DNA of 38,686 bases from Eubacteriales bacterium (GTDB taxonomy: Bacteria; Bacillota; Clostridia; Oscillospirales; CAG-272), in assembly GCA_045633665.1 (NCBI GenBank), contig JAZQYT010000012.1:1-38686 (forward strand), read 5' to 3'. The notes beneath the pieces were generated by a model, which saw only the letters and a list, made by a program, of their open reading frames with translations, did not search any database and was not told the origin of the DNA. Numbering within the stretch: position 1 is the stretch's first letter; every line of letters starts with the position of its first letter. The position numbers and the translations under genes were made by a program. Below, piece after piece: positions 9,229 to 32,319 of this stretch.

Positions 9229-9286
9229 GCGCTTTCTCCTTTGATAAATCATATTTCGTGATACTGCTCAATCATAATGGTACGTT

Positions 9287-9363: not shown

Positions 9364-9398
9364 GTGACAAAAGCCGCGCGTCAAAGGACGCGCGGCTC
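9364..9398 (-). terminator. Rho-independent terminator ending the pilus/adhesin transcription unit
   Basis: AGCCGCGCGTC-loop-GACGCGCGGCT forms an 11-bp stem (9372-9397), followed on the minus strand by TTTTGTC. It is the first such structure I see downstream of the promoter at 25161-25189. Confidence 0.8.
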
Positions 9399-9420
9399 AA
9401 ACGTCAAATATGATCGGCCT

Positions 9421-12400
9421 TTACTTTCTCACAACTTTTCTTCTGCCAAGAACGATTGCAATGATCACACCGACCACGACGATCAACGATGCGGTGATCA
9501 CGCCAACCATGACCTCAGCACCCGTGCCGCCCTCAACCTCCTTGAAGGTGGTTGTGACAATGACGTCGCCCTTGGGCATGATGAACGAATACACACCGTC
9601 GGTCTGCTCGACTTTGAGTGCTTGACCGTTGCATTCGACCGTGACCGTATCCAGGTGATAGCCTTCATCGGGATCGGGTGTAAAGGTGATCACTTCACCG
9701 TCATACGCCTCGCCCACAACGTCAAAGACGCCGTTTTGCGGTGTCGTACCCGTAATACGGTACTTGTCCTTGATCACGAAGGTAGAGAAATCCATGGTGG
9801 AGAACACCAGATAACCGTTCTCATACACAGCGTCGATCTTGGTCAGCGTGCCGTCATCCTCAACGTGGAAGACGTCTGCCGCATAGGCAACGGTGTAAGG
9901 CATTCTGACAGTCAGCTTGTCAACCAAGTAGTCGACGTGGTCGCCCTTCTCATCCAAAATGTCGATCTTGTACGCTACGCGATCCTCATACGTCACGCGC
10001 TCCATACGGACGGTTGCAATGCCGCTGCCCATATGGTAAACTGCATCGATCTGGTTTTTTGGGAATTCCAGCACGGCATCGCCAAGGCGCACGACCAACT
10101 TTTCCGCCTTCCCTTCCCCGGCCTTTTGGAAGACCTTGGAAAGATCCACCTCGATCGCGTTCAGAATCAGCTCAAATACGTCTCCCTCGTTCCCCTTGAT
10201 CTCACCATGCTCTCCATCGGGCGTGGGGGCCAAGGGAACTGCATCAAAGCGTGCGGTATAGGTCACCGCGCTGCCATCCACCGCAGCAAGCGGTATATCC
10301 CAACCCGCAAACACGTACGTGTAGCGGGAATCATCGGGTGCGGTGGGTGTATCGTAAGGATACTGCGGTACCGAGCCGTACTCGAAATCGGACGTGACCT
10401 CCGTATCACCCACGACAAACTTAATGGGATATTTACGAAGCGTGCTGCCAAAGCGTGCGGTATACTTTGCAGGGCCGCTGACAGGCTCGATCTCCTGATC
10501 CCAGTCGATAAAGAAATAGTCGTTTTGAATATCGGATTGCTTTTTGGGGAACTCTGCGTACTCGGGCATAGCCCCGTATTCCATCATCTGCGAATACAGC
10601 ACGCTGCCGTCATCCATCAAAAATTCCACTAAATAGCTGCGCAAATGCGCGTCAAAGCTTGCCGTGTAGGTCGCATCCCCTACAACAGTTGTAAATTCCT
10701 TGTCCCAGCCAGCAAACGTGTACTCAAACTGAGCAGTCGTTTCCTTGCTCGGAATATCGTCGGGGGTATCCCCGTACACGGGCATATCACCGTACAGGTA
10801 GGTCTTGGTGATGCTTTCACCCTCCACGATCCAGGTTACGGTGTAAGAATTGAGCGTTGCATCAAATTCCGCATAGAAGGTCATGGACTCTGTCAGCCGC
10901 GGGAACTGACTGCCGTCGGTATAGAGATTCCCTTGCGCATCCGACCAGCCCTTGAAGGTGTAGGAATATTGCACCGTGGGTTCCTTATAGGGCGTGGAAA
11001 GCATAGACACCGCATCGGTCAGATTCCAAGCATAGTTATAATCTCTTTGCAGATATACGCCGCCCTCTACCATAAAGGTCACGGTATATCTTCTGATGGT
11101 CGCGCTGTACTGCGCTGTGTATACCACGTCCTCGGTGACGGGCAGAACCGTTTTATTCCAGCCGACGAAGGCATAATCGTACTCGTCGGTGGAAGCCTTT
11201 TCGGTCGGGCCCTCATACACGGGGATCTGCCCGTGTACCCATTCTTGCGTGGTGGTATGCCCACCCACGATCCAGGTCACGGTGTGGGTTCTGGGAAGCG
11301 CGTTATAAGAAGCGTACGCATAAACGTCCTGCGTGATACAGGAAAGATCGATGGGCATTCCATCCCTGTCAACCCAGCCTGCAAATTCATAGATTTTGTC
11401 ATCCTTGGGAGGCTTGGTGGGAATTCCGACCTCTTCGGGAACACTCACGCCTTCCCCGGAATGTACACCGTGCGTGCTGCCAAGATAGGTTTCCTCATCG
11501 TCCGTGTTATAGAAATGCACGAAGAAGCGGCGGTCGTTCTCGTCCAAGCTGGCCGAGAACTTGGAGGTCGCGCTCAGACGATAGATCTGATTGGACGAAA
11601 ATTCCGCTCTGGGAACGATCTCTCCCAGCAGATATGCCTGATAAAAGCTTTGCGTCAGCGCATCCCAGCCAAGTGTAGGAGGTGTGCCGGGATGGTGCAG
11701 CGGCCCCTTGGGAGGCTGCGGCATTTCCATCACACCGGGATCTTGCATACCCTCGGGAATTTCGGAAGCGTTGCCGACTGCAGTAAACGTCGGCATTTTG
11801 ATAACGCCAGGCTCTTCCAGCTTGACCGGAGGAGCGATAGGCTGCTTGGTAACCTCATAGGACTCGGGATCCACGGGAGCCACGGGCCACGCGGCAAACG
11901 GCTCTGCCTTGTTGGTATCGGTCGCAGGTCTTACCTCGGGGGATACCAGATCGCGCACGGTCTTATGGCCGCGGTCATCTACAATGGTATTATCCTTGAG
12001 CCTCAAGGTATCGTCGAATACGTGGCTGTATACGTGAAGCGATCCAAGCATACGCACCATGGTATCGAGGTACTGCGGACGCTCTGCCATCAGGATATTA
12101 TAGAAGGTATTGTTATTATACAGCTTCTTGATATTGACGTAAAGCTGATTCAGATGCTTGACAAAGGAGGCGTATTCCTTGATATAGAATTCATAGATCT
12201 CTTGGTCTGTCTCCAGATCCTGGTAGATCTTGCAAAATCTCTGAATGGCTCTGGTTGATTGAACCACAGCATCCACCGTGCTTTTTTCCAGCTTTGCGAA
12301 TTCATCATATCGCTCCTCGATGACAGTACCGATACGGTCGTCGATCATCATCTCAACAAAGGAAATGCCCGAAACGGGATCCTCGATCTCCATCAAGGAA

Positions 12401-13323
12401 AGCAGATATAGCTGATATTCCGCGGTTGCCATGCTGCTCTGATAAGCCTTGTCCAGTCCCGGATAGGTTGCCTTGTAGGCCTGATACTCATTGAACTTTA
12501 CGCAATTCGCATCATACGTATCCCATTCCTGCTTGTTGGCAAGATATTCGGCAAGCTCCTGCTCGTAAACCTTCATCTTGGCAAGATAATCCTGATATGC
12601 TAAGTAATCGTTGTACAGCGCGACAAGATCCATATGATCTCTGTAGGCGTCCTTAGCCGTGTCGTATACCAGCCATTCATTGCGATTCTGCTCGTATGCG
12701 GCCAAGGCTTCCTGGTACACGATCTGCTTATGCTCGTACGCAGCAAGCTCATCATCCAGAATCAACGCACCGTCAAATGCAAAATTGACGAATTCATTCA
12801 AGGTCTCTGCAGAAAGCATCAGATCTGCGCTGTATTCGATGGTCATGGACACGTCTGTCGTCCATTCCACGTCCTCAAATACCGCACGGTAGTAGTTCTC
12901 TCCCACGTCGGGAGCAGGCGCAAATTCTGCAGTTTTTTCACCAATGGTGACGTAATCGGGCGTCCAAAACACGTCTTGGCCGTTTTCCGCTTCGTAGTAA
13001 TCGTCCATGACGATCACGCTCAGACGGTAATTCTCTCCATCATAGTCAACCGTAGGGGCAGAAAACATAGGCTTTGTATAATACAAAACGTTCTGCCCGT
13101 TAAATTTGTAGCGGATGAAATCTTTCTCTTCGTCGGAAATCTCCTGGCCGGTCAACTGCTCCAGTATCTGGCCCATATAGATAATTCCCGCCTTTTTTCG
13201 ATCCATGCTGTAGTTCAGGTCGTCAAAATCTACAGCCCGAGGCGCTGCCGTTTGCGCGCCTACGGTGATCATCATCCCCGCCAACAGTAAACAAGCTGTT
13301 AAAATAACAACTATTTTTCTCAT
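9421..13323 (-). CDS. Large cell-surface protein (1300 aa): Sec signal, Tyr-rich helical region, Pro-rich linker, six InlB B-repeat (Listeria-Bacteroides repeat) units, one divergent B-repeat, C-terminal TM anchor
   Basis: Signal MRKIVVILTACLLLAGMMITVGA/QTA. Six units follow the pattern Y-x-V-x-(F/W)...Y-x-F-x-GW-(D/N/S)...Y-T-A-x-F. The C-terminus is ...GVITASLIVVVGVIIAIVLGRRKVVRK. GGAGG RBS 9 nt upstream. The gene starts 20 nt after the last pilin gene. Confidence 0.9.
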   Translation of the reverse strand: MRKIVVILTACLLLAGMMITVGAQTAAPRAVDFDDLNYSMDRKKAGIIYMGQILEQLTGQEISDEEKDFIRYKFNGQNVLYYTKPMFSAPTVDYDGENYRLSVIVMDDYYEAENGQDVFWTPDYVTIGEKTAEFAPAPDVGENYYRAVFEDVEWTTDVSMTIEYSADLMLSAETLNEFVNFAFDGALILDDELAAYEHKQIVYQEALAAYEQNRNEWLVYDTAKDAYRDHMDLVALYNDYLAYQDYLAKMKVYEQELAEYLANKQEWDTYDANCVKFNEYQAYKATYPGLDKAYQSSMATAEYQLYLLSLMEIEDPVSGISFVEMMIDDRIGTVIEERYDEFAKLEKSTVDAVVQSTRAIQRFCKIYQDLETDQEIYEFYIKEYASFVKHLNQLYVNIKKLYNNNTFYNILMAERPQYLDTMVRMLGSLHVYSHVFDDTLRLKDNTIVDDRGHKTVRDLVSPEVRPATDTNKAEPFAAWPVAPVDPESYEVTKQPIAPPVKLEEPGVIKMPTFTAVGNASEIPEGMQDPGVMEMPQPPKGPLHHPGTPPTLGWDALTQSFYQAYLLGEIVPRAEFSSNQIYRLSATSKFSASLDENDRRFFVHFYNTDDEETYLGSTHGVHSGEGVSVPEEVGIPTKPPKDDKIYEFAGWVDRDGMPIDLSCITQDVYAYASYNALPRTHTVTWIVGGHTTTQEWVHGQIPVYEGPTEKASTDEYDYAFVGWNKTVLPVTEDVVYTAQYSATIRRYTVTFMVEGGVYLQRDYNYAWNLTDAVSMLSTPYKEPTVQYSYTFKGWSDAQGNLYTDGSQFPRLTESMTFYAEFDATLNSYTVTWIVEGESITKTYLYGDMPVYGDTPDDIPSKETTAQFEYTFAGWDKEFTTVVGDATYTASFDAHLRSYLVEFLMDDGSVLYSQMMEYGAMPEYAEFPKKQSDIQNDYFFIDWDQEIEPVSGPAKYTARFGSTLRKYPIKFVVGDTEVTSDFEYGSVPQYPYDTPTAPDDSRYTYVFAGWDIPLAAVDGSAVTYTARFDAVPLAPTPDGEHGEIKGNEGDVFELILNAIEVDLSKVFQKAGEGKAEKLVVRLGDAVLEFPKNQIDAVYHMGSGIATVRMERVTYEDRVAYKIDILDEKGDHVDYLVDKLTVRMPYTVAYAADVFHVEDDGTLTKIDAVYENGYLVFSTMDFSTFVIKDKYRITGTTPQNGVFDVVGEAYDGEVITFTPDPDEGYHLDTVTVECNGQALKVEQTDGVYSFIMPKGDVIVTTTFKEVEGGTGAEVMVGVITASLIVVVGVIIAIVLGRRKVVRK
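10240..11535 (-). repeat. In-frame array of six ~70-75-aa InlB B-repeat units inside the 1300-aa gene (approximate bounds)
   Basis: Units begin RRFFVHFYN, HTVTWIVGG, YTVTFMVEG, YTVTWIVEG, YLVEFLMDD and YPIKFVVGD. Each ends in a ...GW(D/N/S)...Y(T/A)A.F(D/S/G)(A/S) block. Confidence 0.75.
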
Positions 13324-13343
13324 CAGTTAGGTCCTCCAATGCC

Positions 13344-13835
13344 TCATGTGCCACTTTGATCGGCATCATTTTCCGAGGCAGTAATTCTCAGGTGTACGAC
13401 GTGTCCGACACCGTTGAGAGTGTATTTGATAGTTGTGTCGTTGATCTTTTCAAAATAGATCTCACCATCACAAAGCTCGACGGTATTGTACGTCACTTTG
13501 CCGTCCAAAGATTTCAGGGTGTTTACGACACCGTTCTTTATTATTTTGAGTGTCAGATATTCCCCCGTTTGGGTTTCTTCCGCATTTGTTTTCTCATCCT
13601 CCAGAACAAGCGCCGATGCATCTACTTCCCAAAGTCTTTGGTTGATGAACTCCACAGCCGTTTGCTCACGCATCCCGGCAGTAGCACCGCCGCTGACCTT
13701 GGCAGACATACGCGCGCCGGAGATCATAAAGCCGACCACGGCCGCCATGACCACGCTCAATACCGCGATCACAGCAATGACCTCCACAAGCGTCACACCC
13801 TTGTGATTGTTTCTGAGTTTAGTCGTTGGAAGCAT
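13344..13835 (-). CDS. Prepilin-type (class III signal) pilin-like protein, 163 aa
   Basis: MLPTTKLRNNHKG/VTLVEVIAVIAVLSVVMAAV has a Gly at -1, Glu at +5 and a hydrophobic helix. I use the start at 13835 (GGGAGG 9 nt upstream) rather than 13865. Confidence 0.8.
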   Translation of the reverse strand: MLPTTKLRNNHKGVTLVEVIAVIAVLSVVMAAVVGFMISGARMSAKVSGGATAGMREQTAVEFINQRLWEVDASALVLEDEKTNAEETQTGEYLTLKIIKNGVVNTLKSLDGKVTYNTVELCDGEIYFEKINDTTIKYTLNGVGHVVHLRITASENDADQSGT

Positions 13836-14367
13836 TGTACGATACCTCCCAACTTGTAAATTCATTGTTTTCCATACTTACGGTGATTGCAACATTTTCA
13901 TTGTAAACCGTAAATGTCAATACAGAGCCGTTCTCGTTAATATCGCGTACACGAACACCGCACAGCGAGGCTGCGCTTCTGATAATACTCAGCTTAACCT
14001 GCTGCTCATTATCGCCTACCCCATTTTCTTCATTGACTACACCTTCACTATTATCTTCAGCGTCTTCATCAGGAATAGGCTCTTCCGGAGTGGCAGCTTC
14101 AGTAGTGGTGGCTTCCGTGGTGGATTCTTCAGTAGTAGCGGCTTCAGAATTAGCATTTTCAGCCTTAATCAATTCAATACGGATCATTTCAACCGCAGCA
14201 TCCGCTATGTAATAATTCGCAATATTCTCCTGCTTTTGCACAGCAGCGTGGTAGTGTTGCAGCGACAAGCCCATGGCGATCATAGAGAGTACGCTCAGAA
14301 ACATGATCGCAACAACCACGGCGTAAATCATCTGTCCGCGGTTATCTTTCCAAAACTTCTTTGTCAC
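13819..14367 (-). CDS. PilX/ComGG-like minor pilin-like protein lacking Glu+5 (182 aa)
   Basis: MTKKFWKDNRG/QMIYAVVVAIMFLSVLSMIAMG resembles the RG-x-x-hydrophobic N-termini of ComGG and PilX. A Thr/Glu-rich low-complexity insert is present (ATTEESTTEATTTEAATPEEP). The GTG start overlaps the upstream stop as GTGA. Confidence 0.65.
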   Translation of the reverse strand: MTKKFWKDNRGQMIYAVVVAIMFLSVLSMIAMGLSLQHYHAAVQKQENIANYYIADAAVEMIRIELIKAENANSEAATTEESTTEATTTEAATPEEPIPDEDAEDNSEGVVNEENGVGDNEQQVKLSIIRSAASLCGVRVRDINENGSVLTFTVYNENVAITVSMENNEFTSWEVSYNASND

Positions 14368-14759
14368 GGAGCAATCACCCCCTTCAAAATCAGTTCTTTA
14401 GAGTTAATCTCTTCCCCAGACAAATCAGCTTTATTATTGCCCTCTCCCTTGAATACCCACACTTCAACATAATTCGGATTCACGTGGCATCGATAACCCA
14501 AATGTATGCCATCACTATCTCTATTAAAATCATGCTGAATCATATTCACAACATGATCACTATTTTCGCAGCCTTTCAAGGTTTCCATCAAATTGGCTGC
14601 TGCGGTGTATTCGTCAAAGGTCTGCTTAGCAAGCACGTTGCCGCGCTGGGCTACGACAAAGGAAGAAAGACACGGAACGATCACGATCGCCAACAGCGCG
14701 ACAGTCACCAGCACTTCCACCATGGTCAAGCCTTTGTGATTTTTCAGAAGTTTTCGCAT
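14364..14759 (-). CDS. Prepilin-type pilin-like protein, 131 aa (first pilin gene in the unit)
   Basis: MRKLLKNHKG/LTMVEVLVTVALLAIVIV has Gly at -1 and Glu at +5. It shares the NHKG leader end with the 163-aa pilin. GGAG RBS. Confidence 0.8.
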   Translation of the reverse strand: MRKLLKNHKGLTMVEVLVTVALLAIVIVPCLSSFVVAQRGNVLAKQTFDEYTAAANLMETLKGCENSDHVVNMIQHDFNRDSDGIHLGYRCHVNPNYVEVWVFKGEGNNKADLSGEEINSKELILKGVIAP

Positions 14760-14784
14760 GTCCTTCTCCTTTCTCGAAAAAAAC

Positions 14785-16860
14785 TCAAATTCCGTAAATA
14801 TCCTTCAATTCCTCTTCCGTGCACCCAAACAGCTCCAGTACGGCTTCCTTATCCGTATATTTGCCGGGCTCGGTTGCTTCGAAAAAGTCGTACACCTCGT
14901 TGGGAGAGCTGTACTCTTCCTTCAAGATCCATGCAAGCTCTTTTGCGTCATATTCTTCACTCACCAGCTGATCGCGCACCTGCTCCAGGCTCATTTCGTT
15001 ATTCAACATATCCTGTACGTCAGCAAAGGTGTAATCGCTCTGCTTGCCGGTCGTGGTGTCGTCTTCGGTCGTGCCGTCGTCTTCACCCTCGTCCTCGGTG
15101 GTGTCGTCATTGGAGGTAGAATAGATCATATACAGCGTTGCCTCGTCACATTCAAACAGCTTGGTCAAATAATTGCTCAGCTCTTTGGTGTCTTCGTAAT
15201 CCACGCGGTCATCACCGTATTCATCCAAGAATCCCTTCATATCGTTGGGATCGGTGTATTCTTCCTTCAAAATCCAAGCAAGCTCGGTTGCATGGTAGCC
15301 TTCCTTCTTCAGGCGGTTTCTAACGTCATAAAGCGTCATGTCGGGATCTTCATCCATCCATGCTTTGATATCGCTCACGGTGTAGGGGCTGATCTTACCG
15401 TTGGTAATGCCGTTATCGGTCACTTCACCGAAAATACCGTCGATACCGGGAACGATCTCCTCCTCGACTACGGGAGGAACGTATTCAGCATCCTCGCTGA
15501 GCAGATAGTAATGCAGAATGATCATGTTGCCCTGAATCGATTCGTTCAGCGCATTGTATTCCATGGTCAGGGAATATACGGACGCATAGAAATCATCATT
15601 ATCATTGAAATATGCCATCAGGTTCTTCCAGCCGTTATAGGTTGCATAATAAGGAATGTTATACACCTCATAACACAGCAGCATGCCGTTGGAAAGCTTG
15701 GTCAGCTGATAATCCTGGCCATAATTGACCGTCTGCATGCGGATACCCGTTTCGGATTCCACCTTCATGATAAACAGGATGTCATCCTCTTCCTTGGACT
15801 CGCCCGGGAAGCTTGCCAGCTTATCGGAGGTATCCTTGATGAAGATGTTGTCCGCAGGATTGGCCTTGACGTAAGCGCTGATTGCTTCCATCTTGGCATA
15901 AACGTCATATACCTTCTCACCCGTTTCCATGCGGTTGTACATCTGGGTAAGCTTCAGGTCGATATCTTCGATGTACGTATCGAGATTATCCAGCTTGGAC
16001 TTGACGTCGTCATACTTCTTTTGCAGCTCGTCCTTCTTGGCCTGCATTTCGGGAACCAAGCCGCCCGTTGTGACGGTTTCGGTGATAATCTCACCGTTTT
16101 CATCCTCACGCGTTACGGTCGTGGTTGTACCCTTATAGACGTCGATCTGCTCTCTGAGCGCTGTCACGCCCAGTTCCTCCAGCAGCTTGTCTACGTCGGC
16201 AACCGAGGCCTGAATGACGGCCTGACCGCTGCTCAAGGTATCGGGTTTTTTCAAGTTGGAGGAATCCAAGCCTGCCTTTTCAAGCAGCGCTGCAATCACC
16301 TCGTCAGACTGGCGCAGCGTTTCGATCTCGCCTGCCACCTGGTTGGCCTCCTGTTTCAGGGTGTTCTTCTTATTCTCCAGCGCACGCATAATCATTTCAC
16401 TAAGCTCATCATCTGCGTTCATAGACGGGAACACCTCAGAAAGCAGAGCGCTGAGCTCCATGCGTGTTTTGAGCCTTGTATCATTAAGGATCTTGTTGTT
16501 CTCACGCATCGGTCTGTAGAACAGCGCGAACGTACTGATCAACAAAACAAGTCCAAGGGTTACAAAGATCGCAGATAAAACGATCTGGATCATAAATTTC
16601 AGCACAGGCTTGGGAATAGACTTTTTCTTCTTGCCGTTTGGCTTTACGTCGTGGGGCTTTTTCACCTCTGCCTCCGGCTCTTGGGACGGTTGCACCTCAG
16701 TCTCTACGAATTCCTGTGCTATTACGTTCTCAACGTCCTGTTCGACACTCTCGGAGGGTGTATGGTTCTTACCTTTTTTCTTATTATAGATACCGTCCGG
16801 CTGCTTTTTATAGTGCGGCTTCTTGTGCCCGATATCTTCCGTATGCTTTTTTTCCTTCAT
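14785..16860 (-). CDS. Bitopic membrane protein (691 aa) with a PilO-like core, a Lys-rich cytoplasmic N-terminus, a long coiled coil and two tandem C-terminal ~85-aa repeats
   Basis: The gene follows pilM-N, which is the usual PilO position. One TM helix (IQIVLSAIFVTLGLVLLISTFALF). Coiled-coil heptads are present. The segment ...ILFIMKVESETGIRMQTVNYG...GWKNLMAYFNDNDDFYASVYSLTMEYNA...GNMIILHYY resembles the PilO ferredoxin-like fold pattern. GGAGGG RBS. Confidence 0.6.
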   Translation of the reverse strand: MKEKKHTEDIGHKKPHYKKQPDGIYNKKKGKNHTPSESVEQDVENVIAQEFVETEVQPSQEPEAEVKKPHDVKPNGKKKKSIPKPVLKFMIQIVLSAIFVTLGLVLLISTFALFYRPMRENNKILNDTRLKTRMELSALLSEVFPSMNADDELSEMIMRALENKKNTLKQEANQVAGEIETLRQSDEVIAALLEKAGLDSSNLKKPDTLSSGQAVIQASVADVDKLLEELGVTALREQIDVYKGTTTTVTREDENGEIITETVTTGGLVPEMQAKKDELQKKYDDVKSKLDNLDTYIEDIDLKLTQMYNRMETGEKVYDVYAKMEAISAYVKANPADNIFIKDTSDKLASFPGESKEEDDILFIMKVESETGIRMQTVNYGQDYQLTKLSNGMLLCYEVYNIPYYATYNGWKNLMAYFNDNDDFYASVYSLTMEYNALNESIQGNMIILHYYLLSEDAEYVPPVVEEEIVPGIDGIFGEVTDNGITNGKISPYTVSDIKAWMDEDPDMTLYDVRNRLKKEGYHATELAWILKEEYTDPNDMKGFLDEYGDDRVDYEDTKELSNYLTKLFECDEATLYMIYSTSNDDTTEDEGEDDGTTEDDTTTGKQSDYTFADVQDMLNNEMSLEQVRDQLVSEEYDAKELAWILKEEYSSPNEVYDFFEATEPGKYTDKEAVLELFGCTEEELKDIYGI
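14788..15388 (-). repeat. Tandem duplication of a ~85-aa helical module (core ELAWILKEEY) separated by an acidic Thr/Asp/Glu linker, at the C-terminus of the 691-aa protein
   Basis: R1 is SPYTVSDIKAWMDEDPDMTLYDVRNRLKKEGYHATELAWILKEEYTDPNDM... at about 15122-15388. R2 is SDYTFADVQDMLNNEMSLEQVRDQLVSEEYDAKELAWILKEEYSSPNEV... at about 14788-15036. Confidence 0.8.
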
Positions 16861-16877
16861 ACTGTTTCCCTCCTTTC

Positions 16878-18788: not shown

Positions 18789-18833
18789 CAGAGTTACCTT
18801 TCCTTTCAATATAATATGCGAATACGGGCTGCC

Positions 18834-19484
18834 TTAAAAGCCCAGCATGGAGAGATACCATGCAATGGCCGCATTGCCGAACAGGGCTGCAATAAACACA
18901 CCGATCGATAAATACGGGCCCATGGCAAGCATATGTCGCTCACCGGATATTTTCATGCGCAGAAGATGCACCACAGAGCCTATGATACAACCCAGCACAA
19001 ATCCAAGCAATACCAATTTCCATCCCAGCAGCATGCCGCACGCGGCCATCAACTTGACGTCACCGCCGCCAATTGCAGCGCCCTTGGATATGTAAAACAG
19101 TGCCATAAGCGGCAGACTGATCGCAAAAAAGCCGATCACGTAATCATACCAATGGGACAGATCAAATACCAACGCGATCACACCCAGCGCGAAAATAAAC
19201 ACGTTATACGCAAAGGGGATCTCATAGGTTTTCCAATCGATCCAGCTCAAGGACAAAAGGGCTGCGGCAGCAAGGCCGGTCAGAATGGCCGACGCGCTCC
19301 ATCCCATCACGCCAAACGTGGCTGCCCACAAAAGCGCCAAGGTGATGATGAATGCCGCACAGGCCTTGCCCGAGAGCTTATTTTTTTCAAGTTTTACCAA
19401 AAAGCGGTTGACAAGCGGAATGCACGCAGCACCTGCGCCTGCGCCGCACACAGCGGCACCGCTGATCAATATAGCAGGATGCAT
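18834..19484 (-). CDS. pilD: Prepilin peptidase, A24 family, peptidase-only form (216 aa)
   Basis: Both catalytic Asp motifs are present (SWIDWKTYEIP and GGGDVKLMAACG). There is no N-terminal Cys-pair (methyltransferase/DiS_P_DiS) region. Confidence 0.88.
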   Translation of the reverse strand: MHPAILISGAAVCGAGAGAACIPLVNRFLVKLEKNKLSGKACAAFIITLALLWAATFGVMGWSASAILTGLAAAALLSLSWIDWKTYEIPFAYNVFIFALGVIALVFDLSHWYDYVIGFFAISLPLMALFYISKGAAIGGGDVKLMAACGMLLGWKLVLLGFVLGCIIGSVVHLLRMKISGERHMLAMGPYLSIGVFIAALFGNAAIAWYLSMLGF

Positions 19485-19493
19485 ATCTTCTCC

Positions 19494-20714
19494 TTACAAA
19501 TACTGGTCGTACATGCTGTACATTTCAAACATGGGCAGCAGCACACCGATGGCCACGACACCGACCACCACGCAAAGCACCATGATGATCATAGGCTCCA
19601 TCAAGGCCATCATATTCTTGGTAGCCGCCTGTACCTCTTCGTCGTAGTATCCCGCCAGCTTATCCAGCATCTTCTCCAAGTCACCCGATTCTTCACCGAT
19701 TCTGACCATGTGGACGACCATGTGCGGGAAAAGTCCCGTTTGCTGCAGGGCAGTTGCCAGCGTGGTTCCCACGGCAACCTGCTCTCTTGCGCGAAGAAGT
19801 CCTTCTCTGAAGTAAATATTGTTCATGCTGCGCGAAACGATCTCAAGTGCTTCAATGATCGGAATACCCGACGCTGTCAGCGTTGCAAAGGTTCTTGCAA
19901 ACTCGGCAGACGCGGTCTTGACTGTCAAAGGCCCGAAGATGGGCAGCTTGCGCGCCATCCACGCAAAGAAATACGTTCCCGCTTTACTGCGCTTGAACAA
20001 CCATACGCCAAGTGCCAGCAAAGCGCCGACGATCAGGATCAGCCACCAATATCCGACAAAGAAATCACTCGTTCCCATAATCAGGCGCGTGATCCAAGGC
20101 AGCTCGGCACCCATATCCTCAAAGATGCCCTTGAACGTGGGAAGCACGAACAGCATCATGATAAACATGACCACGACCACGACGATCAACACCACGGCAG
20201 GATAGATCATAGCCTTTTTGAGCGCGGATTTGGTCTTGTTGGCATTTTCATAGTAGTCCGCCATACGGGTAAAGGCAACGGACAAGTTACCCGAGGCCTC
20301 ACCTGCCGAGACCATGTTGGTAAACATGGGGGCAAAGATACGCTTGCCCTGCTTGCGCATGGAGTCCGCCAGCATTTCGCCCTGCTGGATCTCCGTTTGC
20401 GTATTGAAGATCGCCTTGCGCAGCGTTTTGTTTTCGGTCTGCTGACCAAGCAGATCCAACGCCTCGGCAATCGGGACGCCCGCGTCCATGACGCTGACAA
20501 GCTGATGACAGAACACGCTCAGCTCACGCGGCTTGACGCTGTTCAAAAACGAAAGCTCAATATCCTTTGTCAGAAGGTTCTGTTCCTTGATCTCAATGGG
20601 CGTCAGGCCCTCGGCAACCAGCTGCTGTCGCGCCTGCTGAATATCCGGGGCTTCTACGCTGCCCTTCTTTTTACTGCCACTCTTATTTATGGCTTCATAT
20701 CCGTAAGTTGGCAT
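19494..20714 (-). CDS. pilC: Type IV pilus platform protein PilC / GspF family (406 aa)
   Basis: Two T2SS-F repeats, each followed by TM segments (...PIAEALDLLGQQTENKTLRKA... and ...PIIEALEIVSRSMNNIYFREGL...VRIGEESGDLEKMLDKLAGYYDEEV). Confidence 0.92.
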   Translation of the reverse strand: MPTYGYEAINKSGSKKKGSVEAPDIQQARQQLVAEGLTPIEIKEQNLLTKDIELSFLNSVKPRELSVFCHQLVSVMDAGVPIAEALDLLGQQTENKTLRKAIFNTQTEIQQGEMLADSMRKQGKRIFAPMFTNMVSAGEASGNLSVAFTRMADYYENANKTKSALKKAMIYPAVVLIVVVVVMFIMMLFVLPTFKGIFEDMGAELPWITRLIMGTSDFFVGYWWLILIVGALLALGVWLFKRSKAGTYFFAWMARKLPIFGPLTVKTASAEFARTFATLTASGIPIIEALEIVSRSMNNIYFREGLLRAREQVAVGTTLATALQQTGLFPHMVVHMVRIGEESGDLEKMLDKLAGYYDEEVQAATKNMMALMEPMIIMVLCVVVGVVAIGVLLPMFEMYSMYDQYL

Positions 20715-20727
20715 TTATTACTCCTTA

Positions 20728-21792
20728 TCAATGTCCAAAGCCTTCCATTTTCTTGGTCAGCGTTTGTTCATCCTCTGCATATTTTATTGCTGTTTCCTTA
20801 GTGATCACACCGTTGCGGTACAGCTCGTTCAAGTGGTCGTCCTTGGTCTGCATGCCGAATTTCTTACCGGTCTGCAGCGCGGATGGAAGCTGCGGGGTTT
20901 TATTTTCTCGGATCATATTTCTGATCGCCATAGTGGGGATCAGCACCTCATATACCGCAGTACGCTTGCCATCCACCGTAGGCACCAGGTTCTGACACAC
21001 CACACACTCCAGCACCGAGGACAGCTGCACGCGGATCTGCGACTGCTGCTCTGCGGGGAAAGCGTCAATGATACGGTCAATGGTAGACGAGGTATTATTG
21101 GTATGCAGCGTCGCGATGACAAGGTGTCCCGTCTCGGCTGCGCTGATCGCGATCGAAATGGTCTCGGGGTCACGCATCTCACCGACCAGGATCACGTCCG
21201 GGTCCTGACGCAACGCCGCACGCAGTGCTGCTGAGAAGGACATGGTATCCACTCCGACCTCGCGCTGGTGAATGATGGACTGATCCGAGGTATGCACGTA
21301 CTCGATCGGGTCCTCCAGCGTGATGATATGACGCTTATGGTGTCTGTTGATGTGATGGATCAGCGCGGCCTGGGTGGTGGATTTGCCGTGACCTGTCGGT
21401 CCGGTGACCAAGATTAGGCCCTTTTGCTTGCCCGACGCACGCACGACCGCCTCGGGGGTGCCGCATTGTGTTGTGGTGGGAATGCTGAAGGGCAAAAGAC
21501 GCATGGCCGCTGCAGGTCTGCCGCTTTCCATATACAGGTTGCAGCGCAATCTGCCGCATCCCTCCAGCGCGAATGCAAAGTCGACCTCACCGTTTTGCTC
21601 CAAGGTGCGGCGCGTACGCTCGTTGAGCATTTCATCGAACACGCTCTGTATATCCTGTGTTGTCAGCACTTGCTCGTCATAGGCCACGAATGCGCCCTGC
21701 ACACGGTATTCGACCGGCCTGCCGACCGTCAGATGGATATCCGAGCAATCATGCTCGGCTCCCGTGGTCAAAATCTGTCTGATGGTTACCAT
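20728..21792 (-). CDS. pilT: Type IV pilus retraction ATPase PilT (354 aa)
   Basis: Walker A GPTGHGKSTT. Walker B ILVGEMRD. His box GHLVIATLHTNN. PilT-specific AIRNMIRE motif. Confidence 0.92.
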   Translation of the reverse strand: MVTIRQILTTGAEHDCSDIHLTVGRPVEYRVQGAFVAYDEQVLTTQDIQSVFDEMLNERTRRTLEQNGEVDFAFALEGCGRLRCNLYMESGRPAAAMRLLPFSIPTTTQCGTPEAVVRASGKQKGLILVTGPTGHGKSTTQAALIHHINRHHKRHIITLEDPIEYVHTSDQSIIHQREVGVDTMSFSAALRAALRQDPDVILVGEMRDPETISIAISAAETGHLVIATLHTNNTSSTIDRIIDAFPAEQQSQIRVQLSSVLECVVCQNLVPTVDGKRTAVYEVLIPTMAIRNMIRENKTPQLPSALQTGKKFGMQTKDDHLNELYRNGVITKETAIKYAEDEQTLTKKMEGFGH

Positions 21793-21830
21793 ATGTACTC
21801 CGTTTTATCTTTTATCGATCTTCAAATTTA

Positions 21831-23522
21831 TCAGTTTTCGTAAGAAACGCTCAGAATTTCCTGGAAGGAGGTAATGCCCGAAAGCGCCAGCTTGGTCGCG
21901 CTCATACGCAGCGTCTGCATGCCGTCCTTCAAGGCCTGCTCCTTGATCTCCTCAGCATTGGCGTGCTTGTTGATCAATCTCTTGACCTCGGGCGACATTT
22001 CCAAAATCTCATATACACCGATTCGGCCGTAATAGCCCGTGCCGTTGCAGCTCATGCAGCCGCAAGGCTCCCAGATATTGGTGGGAACGCTTGGATCCTT
22101 GCCCATAAATTCCAGCTCGTACGCCTCAGCGCGGCGCATCTTTTTACAGTTGGGACAGAGTCTGCGCACCAGTCGCTGCGCAATGATGCCCACTACCGAG
22201 TCCGCGATCAGATACGAATCCACACCCATATCCAAAAGACGCGTGACCGTATTTGCCGCACTGTTGGTATGCAGGGTGCTGACCACCAAGTGGCCCGTGA
22301 TCGATGCCTGGATCGCAATCATCGCGGTCTCGACGTCACGGATCTCACCGATCATGATAATATCGGGGTCCTGACGCAAGATCGAGCGCAGCGCAGACGC
22401 AAACGTCAGCTCCGCCTTGGGATTGACCTGCACCTGATTGATACCGTCTATATTTGCCTCGACAGGGTCTTCTACCGTAACGATATTGACCTCATCGCGG
22501 TTCTTCTCACTCAAAACCGTGTAAAGCGTGGTGGACTTACCCGAACCCGTAGGCCCCGTGACCAGCACGATGCCGTTGGGGTAGGACATGATATGGTCAA
22601 ATTTTTCCATATCCTCCTTGCTAAGTCCCAGCGTGCTTTTATTTCTGCTCAGGCTCTTTTTGAGCGCAAGACGCATAACGCACTTTTCACCGTACGCGGT
22701 AGGCAGCACGGATACACGGATATCATACTCTCTGCCGTCCACCAGATAGGTCATTCTGCCGTCCTGTGGCTTTCTCTTTTCCGAGATATCCATGCCCGAC
22801 AGGATCTTGATTCTTGCAAGCACGGCACCCGTCAATTCACTCGAGTACGTATGCTTGACGTACATGACGCCGTCAATACGGAAGCGCACGCGCAAATGCT
22901 CCTGCAGCGCTTCAAAGTGAATATCCGACGCTCTCTGACGCGCTGCCTGCTCAAGCAACGTGTTGACCAGCACGACAATAGGTGCCGAGCTGACGTCCTC
23001 TCCACGCTCCTCCTCTATGGCAGCCGCGTTTTTACTTCTCTCTCTTTGGAACTGGTCGACCGCCGAGCGCATCGTTTCCGAGCCAAAGCACTTGTCGATG
23101 GCGTTCATGATCTCGGTTGCGGTGGATACGACAGGCTCGATCTGCATGTGCGAGAGCAGCTCCACGTCCTCGATCGCGCCCGCATTCATGGGGTTGAACA
23201 TAGCCAGCTTCATACGTGCAGGCACGTCCTCGGTCAGCGAAACCGGTACGACGCGGTGCTTTTTGAGCACGCCTATATCCACGCAGCGGATCAGATCGTA
23301 ATCCAGCGCTTTGCCCTCCAGCTCCACCAGCGGCAGCCCGTATTTGAAGGCTACCGCGTTTGCGATATCCTTTTCTGCCGCAAACTCGCGCTCCAGGATC
23401 ATTTCCTGCTCGCTCTTGCCCGTTCTGCCCGCCTGCATGATCTCGGAGATCTTGCCTGCCTGCTCACGTGTCATCTGGCGGTTATCTACAAGAATCTCAC
23501 TGATTCTCTTTTTGGATGTCAT
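21831..23522 (-). CDS. pilB: Type IV pilus assembly ATPase PilB / GspE family (563 aa)
   Basis: N-terminal GspE-N domain. Walker A GPTGSGKSTT. IMIGEIRD. GHLVVSTLHTNSA. Tetracysteine cluster CPNCKK...CGCMSCNGTGYYGR. Confidence 0.93.
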   Translation of the reverse strand: MTSKKRISEILVDNRQMTREQAGKISEIMQAGRTGKSEQEMILEREFAAEKDIANAVAFKYGLPLVELEGKALDYDLIRCVDIGVLKKHRVVPVSLTEDVPARMKLAMFNPMNAGAIEDVELLSHMQIEPVVSTATEIMNAIDKCFGSETMRSAVDQFQRERSKNAAAIEEERGEDVSSAPIVVLVNTLLEQAARQRASDIHFEALQEHLRVRFRIDGVMYVKHTYSSELTGAVLARIKILSGMDISEKRKPQDGRMTYLVDGREYDIRVSVLPTAYGEKCVMRLALKKSLSRNKSTLGLSKEDMEKFDHIMSYPNGIVLVTGPTGSGKSTTLYTVLSEKNRDEVNIVTVEDPVEANIDGINQVQVNPKAELTFASALRSILRQDPDIIMIGEIRDVETAMIAIQASITGHLVVSTLHTNSAANTVTRLLDMGVDSYLIADSVVGIIAQRLVRRLCPNCKKMRRAEAYELEFMGKDPSVPTNIWEPCGCMSCNGTGYYGRIGVYEILEMSPEVKRLINKHANAEEIKEQALKDGMQTLRMSATKLALSGITSFQEILSVSYEN

Positions 23523-25089
23523 GCTGTGTTCCCCTCTCGTTATCCGTATGATAAGGCAGCGCCACCTTCATAGTGAAGCTGTTGCCGTTGACCTGGGACG
23601 CCATAGCACCGCCGTTGCGGCGGCAAAGGCCACGGATAATGCTCATACCGTAGCCATGTGTTGTACCGTCCCTTTTGGTGGTCAGATACCTGCCGTTCTC
23701 CTCGATGAAAAATCCGTCGCAGGAGTTGATGCAGGTGAAATATACCTTGTTTTCGTCGACTGTGATCTCAAGACGTACCCAGCGCTTATGCGCATCGGTC
23801 AATCTTTCACAAGCGTCAAACGCATTCTGCAGAACGTTGTTGAGCAACGAGCAGAGATCCGAATCCGAGATCTGCAGCTCGGGCAGCACAGCCAGATCCG
23901 TCTGCAGCGAGATCCGCTTGGCCTCTGCCTTTTTGGAAAAGCTCATGACGATGTAGTCGATCATCAGGTTATTGCTGTATTGCAGCGGTGCGATAGCCTG
24001 CCCTGCCGTCTGCAGCTCCTGCAGATATTCGCCAAGGCGCTCGTATTCGCCCTGACTGTACAGCATGTGGCATGCATTGATATGGTGCATGGTATCATGC
24101 TTGACGCGACGCACCTCGTCGATCCTTTCACGCACGGCCACCGCGTAGCCCTGCGCGGATTCCTTTTCGTAGTTGAGCACGCGGATAACGGTCTTGTTAT
24201 GCAGCGTTTCGGTGACAAATCGGATGCCCAGAATCAGGATCAGATTGACCAGCACCATGCGCTGCAGATAAAACTCACGCAGCGGATGCAGATTGAAGTT
24301 TTCTATAATCTCGGTAAGCACGCTGCGCTGCATGTAAAGTCCGCCGCCGTCGCTGATCAGGGCGATCAGCGTCATGGCCACCATTGCGACAAGCTCAATG
24401 ACCATAAACGGACAGAACCAACGGTAAAAGCCGTTTCCGCGCTCGGCTTCCTTGAAGCCGATGATCAGAACACCGATCAGCGCTCCCGCAAACAAAAGAT
24501 CCGACACCAGCTTGACGTAGGTAAATACCTGCGGGAAAAGTCCCGTGACAGAGAGCAGCGCAAAGATCGCACATACCGCGTATTCAATGACCAGCACGCT
24601 GCGCAAAAAGCCGCGATAGCGTTCGGTCTTTGTGTAAAGACACAGAAGCAGCGGGATGGTCGAGAGCTGATACAGCGTGTCCGCCATCACGTCCACCAGA
24701 TATTGCAGCGAGCCGCTGCCCGAATTGAACAGGTTCAGACCGTAGAGAATGTAAAAGCCCAAGCTCCACAGAATCAGCAGTATGTAGTAATCTGAAACGT
24801 CGTCCGTCCACATCTGGCTCAAAAATGCAAAGCAGCACAAGGCGAACATCAAAAGCAAAAAGGACATCAGCACATAGTCGTCCAGCACCACGTAGATCAA
24901 GCCGTCCGCATTCGCGGGATTGTTTATCAGCTCGGAGAAGGTATGCGAAGTAAAATAGGCATCGGCAAAGCGGCCGAACAGCACGCTCACAACAGCAAAA
25001 AGCAACACGAAAAGCACGGTCCACAAAAGTGCCGGGCGTTTATCTTCCCATGCGTTTTTAACCTTGCTTTGAATATCTGCCTTTTTCAC
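23497..25089 (-). CDS. Multi-pass membrane sensor histidine kinase, AgrC/HPK10-like GHKL type (~530 aa); no response regulator in this window
   Basis: About 7-8 TM helices. H-box RRVKHDTMHHINA. N-box LLNNVLQNAFDA. G-box GTTHGYGMSIIRGLCRRNGG. I use the GTG at 25087-25089 (GGAGG 7 nt upstream) as the start, not 25131. The 3' end overlaps pilB by 26 nt. Confidence 0.8.
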   Translation of the reverse strand: MKKADIQSKVKNAWEDKRPALLWTVLFVLLFAVVSVLFGRFADAYFTSHTFSELINNPANADGLIYVVLDDYVLMSFLLLMFALCCFAFLSQMWTDDVSDYYILLILWSLGFYILYGLNLFNSGSGSLQYLVDVMADTLYQLSTIPLLLCLYTKTERYRGFLRSVLVIEYAVCAIFALLSVTGLFPQVFTYVKLVSDLLFAGALIGVLIIGFKEAERGNGFYRWFCPFMVIELVAMVAMTLIALISDGGGLYMQRSVLTEIIENFNLHPLREFYLQRMVLVNLILILGIRFVTETLHNKTVIRVLNYEKESAQGYAVAVRERIDEVRRVKHDTMHHINACHMLYSQGEYERLGEYLQELQTAGQAIAPLQYSNNLMIDYIVMSFSKKAEAKRISLQTDLAVLPELQISDSDLCSLLNNVLQNAFDACERLTDAHKRWVRLEITVDENKVYFTCINSCDGFFIEENGRYLTTKRDGTTHGYGMSIIRGLCRRNGGAMASQVNGNSFTMKVALPYHTDNERGTQHDIQKENQ

Positions 25090-25160
25090 GGTCTGTCCTC
25101 CTTCCTGCAAATTTGTCCGAATCAATCGCACACAGTACCTGCATTATAATACTTCATCAT

Positions 25161-25189
25161 ATTTTAACACATAACCCTTTCCTTGTCAA
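25161..25189 (-). promoter_or_regulatory. SigA-type promoter of the kinase/pilus unit: TTGACA-17-TGtTAAAAT
   Basis: The plus strand reads tgtcaa at 25184-25189 and atttta at 25161-25166, with a 17-nt spacer and an extended -10 TG. A second TATAAT lies 12 nt further downstream (25143-25148). Confidence 0.7.
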
Positions 25190-25567
25190 GTTTTTCGCAT
25201 GAACAGACGCGTTTCAAGCACCAAAAGGCAGCTGAAAATCTCTTTACGGCATATAAGTTTCCACATTTTTCCACCGCGGTTCGATCAGCGCGAAAAAACG
25301 AGAAAAAAGCACCGCCTGCAAAAGGCAAAAAATGGGTGACTTACGGGTGCCGAAGGATGCGCGGATTTGTCGGACGCGCGCGCAATTTCGCATGTGAGCG
25401 CGCGGAAAATCGCGGGAAACCGCGTAAAAGCGTGAAGCGCATCGGTGCTTGCGGTTCTCTTTATCTTTGCGAAATATATCACTTTTTAGTTTCTTTTGTA
25501 ACTATTTGTTTATTTTTGTCAAAAGCGGAAAAGCTTGTTATTGCCGCCAAAGCAGCAATATTTTGCA

Positions 25568-25606
25568 CAAAAAACGAGGTGGACGGCCCATAGCCGTCCA
25601 CCTCGA
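25568..25606 (-). terminator. Rho-independent terminator of the V-ATPase operon
   Basis: CGAGGTGGACGGC-loop-GCCGTCCACCTCG forms a perfect 13-bp stem (25575-25605), followed on the minus strand by TTTTTTG. Confidence 0.88.
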
Positions 25607-25629: not shown

Positions 25630-26313
25630 TTATTCGTCCTCGTCCTCGTCCTCGTCCGCCTGCCCTGTCTCTCGCTGCGCCTTGATCATCATGTCCTTGA
25701 CCTTCATCAAGCGCGTGGTATTGCCACGGTCGTTTTCATCCAGCTTCATCTTGATCGACTTGATGGTTGCTAAATACTTGGGGATCATGATATACTCCAA
25801 GGCATTGACGCGGCGGCGCGTTTTTTCGATCTCCTGTGCCAACATCTGCACAGTCTTCTCACTCTCTGCAAGCGCCACGAGATCCTCCAAGATCCCGCTC
25901 ATCTGCGCCAAGGAGGCATCAAGCTCACCCGAGGTAAACGCAAAGCCGTAATTATAGCTGTCCTGTCCGTCCTTCCCCATCACCTCCAGGGTGAATTCGG
26001 GTACGGTCACACTCATGATGTTGCGGTAGCGCACGTCCAGCTTGCCCTGCTTTTTGGGCAGCATGAGCGATTCCTCCATCACCAGCGGTCCCGATACTGC
26101 GCCTGCGATCGAAAGGCTTCCGTACACGCCCGAAAGCGATGCCTCAACCTTCTCTCGAAGCTCCTTATTCTGCCGCACGGTTTCCAAGAACTGCTTCATC
26201 AGACCGTCACGCTTGTCCTTGAGCAGCTTGTGTCCTCTGCGGGCATTTGCGTAACGCGTCTGCATTTTTTTCAGTTCCATACGCGTCGGGTTGACGTTGT
26301 AGGTTTGTGCCAT
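25630..26313 (-). CDS. atpD: V/A-type ATPase subunit D (227 aa)
   Basis: MAQTYNVNPTRMELKKMQTRYANARRGHKLLKDKRD... is the canonical V-type D N-terminus. The C-terminal tail is acidic (DEDEDEDE). Confidence 0.92.
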   Translation of the reverse strand: MAQTYNVNPTRMELKKMQTRYANARRGHKLLKDKRDGLMKQFLETVRQNKELREKVEASLSGVYGSLSIAGAVSGPLVMEESLMLPKKQGKLDVRYRNIMSVTVPEFTLEVMGKDGQDSYNYGFAFTSGELDASLAQMSGILEDLVALAESEKTVQMLAQEIEKTRRRVNALEYIMIPKYLATIKSIKMKLDENDRGNTTRLMKVKDMMIKAQRETGQADEDEDEDE

Positions 26314-26367
26314 AATTGCCTCCGTGCCGCCCCTTATCGGGCGGCTTGCTTTGTTCTATCTTCTGTC

Positions 26368-27741: not shown

Positions 27742-27762
27742 GATTGCAATCCTTTCTCAGCC

Positions 27763-29523: not shown

Positions 29524-29535
29524 ATCTGATACTCC

Positions 29536-30859: not shown

Positions 30860-30912
30860 AGGTCAAGTAACCTTTCCAAAAAAGAAGTGTGTAGGGCGGC
30901 AGCACCGCCAAC

Positions 30913-31593: not shown

Positions 31594-31640
31594 GATTCTT
31601 CCTCAATTCTCAATCTGTATGCGCGGCCTGCGGCCACGGA

Positions 31641-32282: not shown

Positions 32283-32319
32283 GATATTTATTTCTCCTTA
32301 AAAATATTTGAATGATATT

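Follow-up and report, generated by a model that had tools for sequence, protein, structure and literature searches.

The stretch of DNA analysed here, 38,686 nucleotides (nt) from an uncultured clostridial bacterium and hereafter called the window, encodes a type IV pilus locus on its minus strand. Eleven co-oriented open reading frames (ORFs), spanning 25089 to 9421, occupy the interval from 25605 to 9367 and are flanked by two strong intrinsic terminators. Their order is kinase, pilB, pilT, pilC, pilD, pilMN, PilO-like, pilin, pilin-like, pilin and a giant surface protein of 1300 amino acids (aa). Start codons were chosen from Shine-Dalgarno sites and homologue lengths, giving GTG 25089 for the kinase, ATG 18788 for PilMN and ATG 13835 for the second pilin. 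Most gene identities proposed in the preliminary description of this DNA agree with the assignments below, except that the kinase most likely starts at GTG 25089 (530 aa, as in all homologues) rather than at 25131, and that the label 'PilX/ComGG-like', given to the 182-aa protein, finds no support in Pfam or NCBIfam models.

25575 to 25605, minus: intrinsic terminator at the upstream boundary, ending the V-type ATPase operon (14-bp perfect stem, folding free energy (dG) -25.3, T6 tail)
25161 to 25189, minus: sigma-70-type promoter TTGACA-17-TGtTAAAAT (TTGACA 25189-25184, TGtTAAAAT 25169-25161; 11/12 consensus positions, extended -10)
23497 to 25089, minus: orphan AgrC-type sensor histidine kinase, 530 aa (HATPase_c_5, Pfam PF14501, 63 bits)
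21831 to 23522, minus: PilB extension ATPase (T2SSE 455 bits plus MshEN; Walker A; CPNC...CMSC pair; 26-nt overlap with the kinase gene)
20728 to 21792, minus: PilT retraction ATPase (TIGR01420 457.6 bits, cut-off 319.1; AIRNMIRE motif)
19494 to 20714, minus: PilC platform protein (T2SSF, two domains, 223 bits)
18834 to 19484, minus: PilD prepilin peptidase, 216 aa (Peptidase_A24 64 bits; no A24_N_bact domain)
16878 to 18788, minus: PilM-PilN fusion, 636 aa (PilM_2/TIGR01175 on residues ~15-290)
14785 to 16860, minus: enlarged protein in the PilO position, 691 aa (no family match; hhalign to PilO-position proteins)
14364 to 14759, minus: prepilin, 131 aa, KNHKG/LTMVE with the slash at the cleavage site (N_methyl 27.8 bits, TIGR02532)
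13819 to 14367, minus: pilin-like protein, 182 aa, without Glu5, KDNRG/QMIYAV (pilin-like hydrophobic N-terminus, position)
13344 to 13835, minus: prepilin, 163 aa, NNHKG/VTLVE (N_methyl 31 bits, TIGR02532)
9421 to 13323, minus: 1300-aa surface protein (Sec signal peptide, Flg_new_2/Flg_new repeats, C-terminal transmembrane anchor)
9367 to 9396, minus: intrinsic terminator closing the unit (GCCGCGCGTC-CTTT-GACGCGCGGC followed by TTTTGT; 10-bp GC-rich stem, dG -17.1)

Layout and conservation of the pilus unit

The locus had earlier been read as a single unit of about 15.8 kb running from a strong promoter at 25161-25189 to a terminator at 9364-9398, with only overlaps or gaps of 9-45 nt between its genes, and each of these elements was recovered. 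The promoter, with its extended -10, lies about 385 nt downstream of the V-type ATPase (V-ATPase) terminator at 25605-25575. The ten junctions measure, in order and with overlaps as negative values, -26, 38, 13, 9, 45, 17, 25, -4, -17 and 20 nt; the overlaps comprise the 26 nt shared by the kinase gene and pilB, the GTGA at 14364-14367 and 17 nt at 13819-13835. The last ORF stops at 9421, upstream of the closing hairpin at 9396-9367.

The check for internal terminators proposed in the preliminary description was carried out as an RNAfold-scored scan for T-tracts preceded by a closed hairpin, covering the whole minus strand between both boundary terminators. It returned no comparable hairpin and T-tract, only weak irregular structures in coding sequence. 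The reading of the locus as one unit is consistent with all computational evidence, namely a single conserved promoter, tight or overlapping junctions and the lack of an internal canonical terminator. It is thus strongly supported that one conserved sigma-70-type promoter would drive 11 co-oriented, tightly packed genes, with transcription predicted to end at the 9367-9396 hairpin.

The cluster might instead be divided among several transcripts by internal promoters, for example before the pilins or the giant gene, so that kinase and adhesin are not strictly co-regulated. This arrangement is possible, though rather unlikely. Pilin genes often have additional promoters in other species, and the minus strand of the cluster contains promoter-like hexamers at 21122-21094, 16969-16941 and 12143-12115. 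However, such sequences are as frequent as expected by chance and hence uninformative (25 in the scanned region, both strands, against 19.3 +/- 3.6 expected). Some relatives have longer gaps between pilT and pilC (286 nt in locus L011, 114 nt in L007) or a hairpin there (L002), but gaps in the window do not exceed 45 nt, and canonical terminators are missing from the interior of the cluster both in the window and in four of five complete relatives. Since read-through would still link all genes, several transcripts would in any case be compatible with the kinase feedback proposed below.

Related loci are confined to a narrow clade. PilMN and the kinase were each used as query in protein searches, and either one yielded about 50 clusters of 63-100% identity, several of them on the same contigs; the next matches fell below 32%. 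In a scan of one genome per GTDB species, the kinase was present in 15 species, to which further metagenome contigs can be added. All 15 are uncultured metagenome-assembled genomes from cattle, yak or sheep gut, named Eubacteriales, Clostridia or Oscillospiraceae bacterium. Every related locus reads V-ATPase B, V-ATPase D, kinase, pilB, pilT, pilC, pilD, pilMN, PilO-like, pilin, pilin-like, pilin; this order and the tight junctions are common to 17 related loci. Wherever the contig extends far enough, the giant protein (1293-1306 aa, or 3136 aa in one lineage) follows the last pilin and, on contigs that extend further, is itself followed by a solute-binding protein (SBP) lipoprotein. Mean identity to the window is 97% for V-ATPase B, 85% for PilB, 68% for the kinase, 67% for PilMN, about 50% for the PilO-like protein, about 50% for the pilins and about 45% for the giant. 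GC content and skew are unremarkable across the locus and show no signature of an island or of horizontal transfer.

The boundaries are conserved as well. A hairpin equivalent to the V-ATPase terminator, different in sequence, is present in every relative, and one equivalent to the closing terminator follows the giant gene in L001, L022, L023 and L024. In all five fully covered loci, canonical terminators occur only between V-ATPase and kinase, between giant and SBP genes and after the SBP gene, with stem sequences that differ between species; only L002 deviates, having a hairpin with poor T-tail between pilT and pilC. In most loci the kinase gene and pilB overlap by 26 or 4 nt, and elsewhere they are at most 27 nt apart. 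In L002 and L003 the V-ATPase operon and the kinase gene are separated by an inserted 601-aa gene that has a terminator of its own, yet the kinase gene still stands with pilB. This insertion is the best natural test of whether the kinase belongs to the pil unit, and its outcome argues that it does.

The kinase and/or the giant protein could nonetheless be co-transcribed passengers, present on the pil transcript without a functional tie and retained by shared ancestry. The comparison of gene order called for earlier gave a divided answer here: kinase and giant genes are attached to the pil core in every clade relative, but these relatives are close (V-ATPase B 97%), genes outside the operon are conserved too and, in the one related cluster of other Clostridia with a visible upstream region, the kinase is absent. 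The giant, moreover, belongs to the ordinary Listeria-Bacteroides-repeat surface proteins that are common in gut Clostridia. Passenger status is nevertheless unlikely. The kinase family occurs almost only before pilB and was kept there across the upstream insertion, the overlapping frames were retained while the proteins diverged to 64-70% identity, and unrelated giants in the same terminal slot of distant clusters argue that the slot itself is selected.

The kinase and the promoter region

The preliminary description had called the first gene an AgrC-like kinase, and its domain match, the invariance of its catalytic boxes and its closest fold bear this out. The H-box (KH331DTMHHI), N-box (N417/N418/N422) and G-box (G479/G481) are invariant in 16 homologues of 64-100% identity, and the protein is probably a working histidine kinase. 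Hydropathy places 7-8 hydrophobic helices within residues 20-293, with only one short external loop. An AlphaFold2 (AF2) model with a mean predicted local distance difference test score (pLDDT) of 61 is helical throughout the sensor region at low confidence; on the same low-confidence model, the best match of the cytoplasmic half in the PDB is the Staphylococcus aureus AgrC module 6e95 (E 5e-8). The near-absence of extracytoplasmic loops points to a membrane-embedded or small-ligand signal and not to direct sensing of a substrate, and the surface- or substrate-sensing attachment module suggested earlier is at most a putative function.

The sensor domain is essentially private to this clade. 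Residues 1-310 have no Pfam match and no PDB sequence match. Against 1.84 billion representative sequences, the 310-aa domain returned one full-length 50%-identity cluster plus fragments, all from this clade, and beyond it only three very remote kinases of the same layout (21-25% identity). The family thus appears to be present essentially only in front of pilB. Remote relatives with readable context (P0102, P0103, P0119) adjoin Response_reg plus LytTR genes in three of three cases, and Pfam scans of all substantial ORFs led us to reject a response regulator hidden in the window. Because the remote relatives keep a LytTR regulator and this locus has none, the kinase is classed as an orphan whose expected LytTR partner would be encoded elsewhere. 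The remote relatives also stand beside genes for surface structures (L019 10001-19731, L020 1-11860, L028 3606-9219): a 1934-aa Flg_new/SLH protein, a Tad/Flp pilus cluster and a polysaccharide synthesis cluster.

A kinase of this type might be a true AgrC/ComD-type pheromone receptor that ties pili to cell density, with peptide and processing genes elsewhere. Kinases of the AgrC/VirS/ComD group (HPK10) share with it the family and fold of the cytoplasmic module and a polytopic, short-loop sensor such as peptide receptors have, and the remote relatives possess adjacent LytTR partners as that group does. The window kinase differs in having no adjacent regulator, peptide or processing genes, in a longer sensor (about 300 aa, 7-8 helices) that is unrelated in sequence to that of AgrC, and in its place within a pilus operon. 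No agrB/agrD-like gene or small conserved ORF was found beside it, nor is there sequence conservation in the 385-nt spacer upstream. That the gene tightly overlaps pilB further suggests a pilus-specific role, which leaves quorum sensing an improbable explanation.

The V-ATPase-kinase spacers of 16 loci were aligned, and four parts can be told apart: terminators of variable sequence, an A-rich box, an unconserved GC-rich stretch of variable length and the promoter block. Two further features of this region are the following.

25482 to 25515, minus: A-rich box TAAACAAA-N11-AAACTAAAA, kept in 16/16 aligned upstream regions within otherwise unconserved DNA
25197 to 25224, minus: direct repeat TTGGTGC-N14-TTCATGC with a 21-bp period, ending 7 nt before the -35; candidate site for a LytTR-type regulator

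The promoter block shows conservation between about -60 and +25, and all 16 loci have TTGACA and TGnTAnAAT unchanged. The degenerate repeat TTSRTGC-N14-TTSRTGC has a single occurrence in the window and, at the corresponding place, a single one in each of 15 related loci. Pairs of 9-bp repeats separated by 12 bp (21-bp period) beside the -35 are the classical layout of LytTR sites, as for AgrA, ComE, PlnC and VirR, and the repeat at 25197-25224 is accordingly put forward as a candidate binding site for a regulator of this type.

The A-rich box directly follows the V-ATPase terminator, 200-320 nt upstream of the -35 of the pil promoter in the aligned loci; it might serve as a further weak promoter (GTTACA-18-TATATT in the window) or as a binding site for a protein. 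Another TATAAT, nearly invariant, stands at 25143-25148 (minus), 12 nt downstream of the -10 and within the block conserved to about +25 (ATGATGAAGAATTATAATGCAGGTACTGTG). No usable -35 for it was found, and this element may therefore act as an operator that overlaps the start of transcription. A riboswitch or leader RNA upstream of the kinase was rejected, as Rfam at gathering thresholds gave only a tRNA at 38472-38543. A structured 5' untranslated region was likewise discarded: hairpins in 12 species fold no better than shuffled sequence (z about 0 in 10 of the 12).

Pilus machine, terminal protein and related clusters

PilB, PilT, PilC and PilD are clear assignments. PilB has TIGR02538 as its top match (579 bits, under the equivalog cut-off of 675), and the canonical cyclic di-GMP (c-di-GMP) binding motif RLGxx(L/V/I)(L/V/I)xxG was sought in its MshEN domain and not found. 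As PilT exceeds the TIGR01420 cut-off and carries the AIRNMIRE motif, a retractile type IVa machine is a fair call. PilD has no A24_N_bact domain, and pilins may be cleaved but not N-methylated here. In PilMN, the PilM part passes the PilM_2 cut-off (36.6 bits, cut-off 27) and stays below that of TIGR01175 (65.8 bits, cut-off 133); one transmembrane segment (383-401) and then a coiled coil follow. The remaining half is probably PilN, judging from this fusion topology and from distant homologues that carry PilM_2 plus PilN.

The 691-aa protein combines a cytoplasmic Lys-rich N-terminus, one transmembrane segment, a coiled coil, a PilO-like core (343-481) and two C-terminal repeats. Its core aligns with the 245-aa PilO-position proteins of distant clusters (hhalign 96.4%, E 1e-9), which themselves match T2SSM weakly, and on these two grounds the earlier name 'PilO-like' is reasonable, being supported indirectly through other clostridial clusters. 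The size of this protein ranges from about 510 to 1080 aa within the clade (window, L011, L024), and its two C-terminal repeats of about 95 aa, with ELAWILKEEY, have no family match.

Both prepilins share the cleavage site KG/(L/V)T(M/L)VE, and no prepilin motif was found in the window besides the pilin-type genes listed above. The N-terminus of the 182-aa protein is invariant across the clade, and in BLAST the protein weakly resembles the N-terminal part of a 732-aa protein encoded by the distant locus L021. With 9 nt separating them (19485-19493), pilC and pilD enclose no pilin gene, whereas four of four distant clusters carry one of 145-179 aa at this point. A candidate for the major pilin is the 131-aa protein at 14364-14759, but that pilin may also be encoded elsewhere.

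The 1300-aa protein had been described as an InlB-B-repeat Sec protein, and signal peptide, repeats and an InlB-B-like domain are all present. The chain opens with a Sec signal peptide and a predicted Ig-like domain, followed by a stalk that combines a helix of about 105 residues and a helical bundle; a Pro-rich linker, about seven Listeria-Bacteroides-type repeats and the InlB-B-like domain come next, and it ends in an invariant VEGG motif, a transmembrane anchor and an RRK basic tail. Flg_new_2 scores 31.9 bits (E 1.3e-7; cut-off 23.6, passed) and Flg_new 22.8 bits (cut-off 27, below), and the repeats of residues 575-1030 (about 70 aa, Flg_new type) align mutually in the 3136-aa homologue. 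Residues 1-607, modelled with AF2 (pLDDT 73), are predicted to form an Ig-like sandwich and a long helical stalk. For the N-terminal head, Foldseek returned nothing below E 0.1 in the PDB, and there was no PDB sequence match. A search with the N-terminus of the giant yielded only three relatives, a number probably limited by the word index. NCBIfam gave no significant match to sorting signals (LPXTG variants, GlyGly-CTERM and others), and Pfam gave only Flg_new/Flg_new_2, with no Neisseria_PilC/PilY1 propeller or pilin-like domain.

In L002 (15388-21911) and L003, the lineage that has the inserted 601-aa gene, the terminal protein reaches 3136 aa through many extra Flg_new-type repeats. A second secreted protein of the window (543 aa, Sec signal peptide; 3-1634, minus) ends in SGGCGS, a transmembrane segment and KKKD, much as the giant ends in VEGG, a transmembrane segment and RRK (9421-9570). 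These termini may represent a shared, undescribed C-terminal anchoring or sorting signal, which no NCBIfam sorting model matches.

Four related clusters occur in other Clostridia (L021, L025, L026, L027; PilMN 24-27% identical), with the order pilB-pilT-pilC-pilA-pilD-pilMN-pilO-pilins. The C. difficile cluster reads pilA1-pilB1-pilC1-pilMN-pilO-pilV-pilU-pilK. Clostridial type IVa clusters (those of C. difficile and C. perfringens and the four distant ones) have in common with the window the core set and its order on one strand: pilB, pilT, pilC, pilD, a pilM-pilN fusion, a PilO-position gene and pilins. In contrast to them, the window has an AgrC-type kinase gene before and overlapping pilB, and no pilin between pilC and pilD. 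In the one distant cluster with a visible upstream region, no kinase was found. PilD of the distant clusters (247-258 aa) has the A24_N_bact domain that is missing in the window, and the PilO-position protein of the window clade (510-1080 aa) is 2-4 times larger than that of other clostridial clusters.

The four distant clusters also share with the window a giant Sec protein at their end. These giants, of 1345 to more than 1807 aa and with an N-terminal signal or anchor, carry DUF5057 (L021 14181-18518, L025 17551-21695, L026 13114-16647, L027 12685-14916), unlike the Flg_new-repeat protein of the window. Homology between the two kinds was rejected (hhalign 0.4%), and no paper mentioning DUF5057 was found in the literature searched. 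A slot for a giant Sec protein therefore recurs at the end of clostridial pilus clusters, and at least two unrelated families fill it. Such a slot makes the adhesin end of the locus less unusual, yet makes a functional tie between pilus and giant more likely.

The preliminary description suggested that the combination of genes may be undescribed. This appears to hold for its kinase part, since literature searches turned up nothing relevant on a kinase in a Firmicute type IV pilus locus and no paper on one of the AgrC type within such an operon. In contrast, a giant at the 3' end is common in clostridial clusters, and the wiring of kinase, pilus and adhesin is known in Gram-negatives from PilS-PilR and FimS-AlgR/PilY1 (PMC5979040).

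More doubtful still than quorum sensing is a Gram-positive type II-like secretion or display machine, in which a short pseudopilus would help the giant, and perhaps other proteins, to cross or extend through the thick wall without a long adhesive pilus: such a machine would suit the presence of only three small pilin-type genes, the lack of an obvious major pilin between pilC and pilD, unlike in related clusters, the large Sec substrate encoded in the same unit and the reported pilin-dependent secretion of the large protein BsaC in C. perfringens, but a bona fide PilT is typical of type IVa pili rather than of secretion systems, the giant keeps a C-terminal membrane anchor and so is not released, and the C. 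perfringens substrate gene lies outside the pil operon (bioRxiv 10.1101/2024.11.04.621531).

A possible feedback circuit and its setting

Known inputs to type IV pili in monoderms include c-di-GMP riboswitches (C. difficile) and catabolite control (C. perfringens), and their regulation is otherwise poorly understood. No Rfam riboswitch precedes the window operon, which differs in this respect from the riboswitch-controlled pili of C. difficile. The reading that we hold to be probable, though only modestly so, takes the locus for a type IVa pilus operon specific to one lineage, an uncultured clade of ruminant-gut Clostridia, and places it under feedback control by the kinase. A largely membrane-embedded sensor would read a membrane signal, most plausibly the pool of unassembled pilin or the state of the pilus machine, by analogy with PilS and PilA and with FimS, minor pilins and PilY1. 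The kinase would pass phosphate to a LytTR-type regulator encoded elsewhere in the genome, which in turn would bind the direct repeat of 21-bp period that closely precedes the -35. In this way the operon would be self-regulating, and an unlinked major pilin gene might be controlled as well. The giant protein would fill the terminal slot and most likely act with the pilus in attachment, either as a co-expressed surface adhesin or through pilus-dependent passage of the wall.

Several points weigh against this feedback reading. The 15.7-kb single mRNA is deduced from the layout, and internal promoters within coding sequence are possible. Neither Response_reg nor LytTR domains occur in the window ORFs (38.7 kb, same Pfam scans) or in the related loci, and the kinase model, with its pLDDT of 61, is of low confidence. 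The promoter is already near consensus, so an activator may be unnecessary, and the conserved block could instead hold a repressor operator or a site for a non-LytTR factor. In the chance test of the repeat, 26 of 100 shuffles gave at least one match at one mismatch; the pattern was defined after the site had been seen, and for this reason the test is weak. With all relatives close and genes outside the operon conserved too, synteny is weak functional evidence; more telling than gene order are the clade-bound sensor domain, the absence of the kinase from the distant cluster with a visible upstream region and the unrelated giants that end the distant clusters. Finally, a C-terminal membrane anchor and the lack of a pilin-like or PilY1-like domain make a PilY1-like role as tip adhesin unlikely for the giant.

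Two Gram-negative systems offer the closest parallels. PilS, found in Pseudomonas, Myxococcus and Geobacter, is a membrane kinase encoded in the pil region that senses pilin and controls pilin transcription via PilR. It has six transmembrane helices, a PAS domain and HisKA/HATPase_c, and acts through an NtrC-type regulator on a sigma-54 promoter, whereas the window has HATPase_c_5, no regulator and a sigma-70-type promoter (TTGACA/TAAAAT). In Pseudomonas aeruginosa, FimS(AlgZ) works with the LytTR regulator AlgR; this system activates the minor-pilin/PilY1 operon (fimU-pilVWXY1Y2E) and is inhibited by the products of that operon, expression is controlled through repeats that precede the promoter, and the kinase receives feedback from pilus proteins (PMC5979040). 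The likeness lies in a polytopic kinase of the LytTR-pairing kind near pilin-type genes and a large (>1000 aa) Sec-dependent non-pilin gene. The window differs in having no linked regulator, in a HATPase_c_5 module that is not of the LytS/AlgZ type, in a kinase gene inside the operon with the motors and in its monoderm host; its giant, compared with PilY1, is membrane-anchored and has no PilY1/PilC propeller or von Willebrand factor A (vWA) domain. The window system would thus resemble PilS-PilR and FimS-AlgR/PilY1 in logic and belong to neither, an analogy and not a homology.

A bolder version of kinase feedback is an unlikely one. In it, the locus would be an independently arisen Gram-positive counterpart of PilS/FimS: the kinase, produced along with PilB, would use its membrane domain to bind the hydrophobic N-termini of the pilins encoded in the operon or to sense pilus retraction, signals would travel via an unlinked LytTR regulator to the repeats at the operon's own promoter, and the giant would be a monoderm stand-in for PilY1.

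A sensor kinase built into a pilus operon would, if true, be a new regulatory design for Firmicutes and an independent re-invention of the pilin-feedback logic of Pseudomonas. What is of interest here is the embedded orphan kinase with its private sensor domain, and what may be generalised is the terminal slot for a giant protein; the machine itself is well known, and the locus is not categorically new. Its hosts are abundant uncultured ruminant-gut Clostridia, for which pili and large repeat proteins are likely tools for attachment to plant fibre. Practical weight is limited by a narrow and uncultured clade and by evidence that is computational.

The surroundings of the pilus operon are ordinary. 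Upstream lies the V-type ATPase operon (25630-34323, minus), with subunits I, K/c, E and C, then A, B and D according to Pfam, the subunit D gene occupying 25630-26313. The next gene downstream encodes a 493-aa lipoprotein (7771-9252) with homologues among SBP_bac_8 solute-binding proteins and forms a separate one-gene unit, with a perfect 12/12 promoter of its own (TTGACA-17-TGgTATAAT at 9315-9287) and a strong terminator near 7707 (dG -26.9). Other housekeeping neighbours are a leucyl-tRNA synthetase gene at 3936-6371 and the tRNA gene at 38472-38543.

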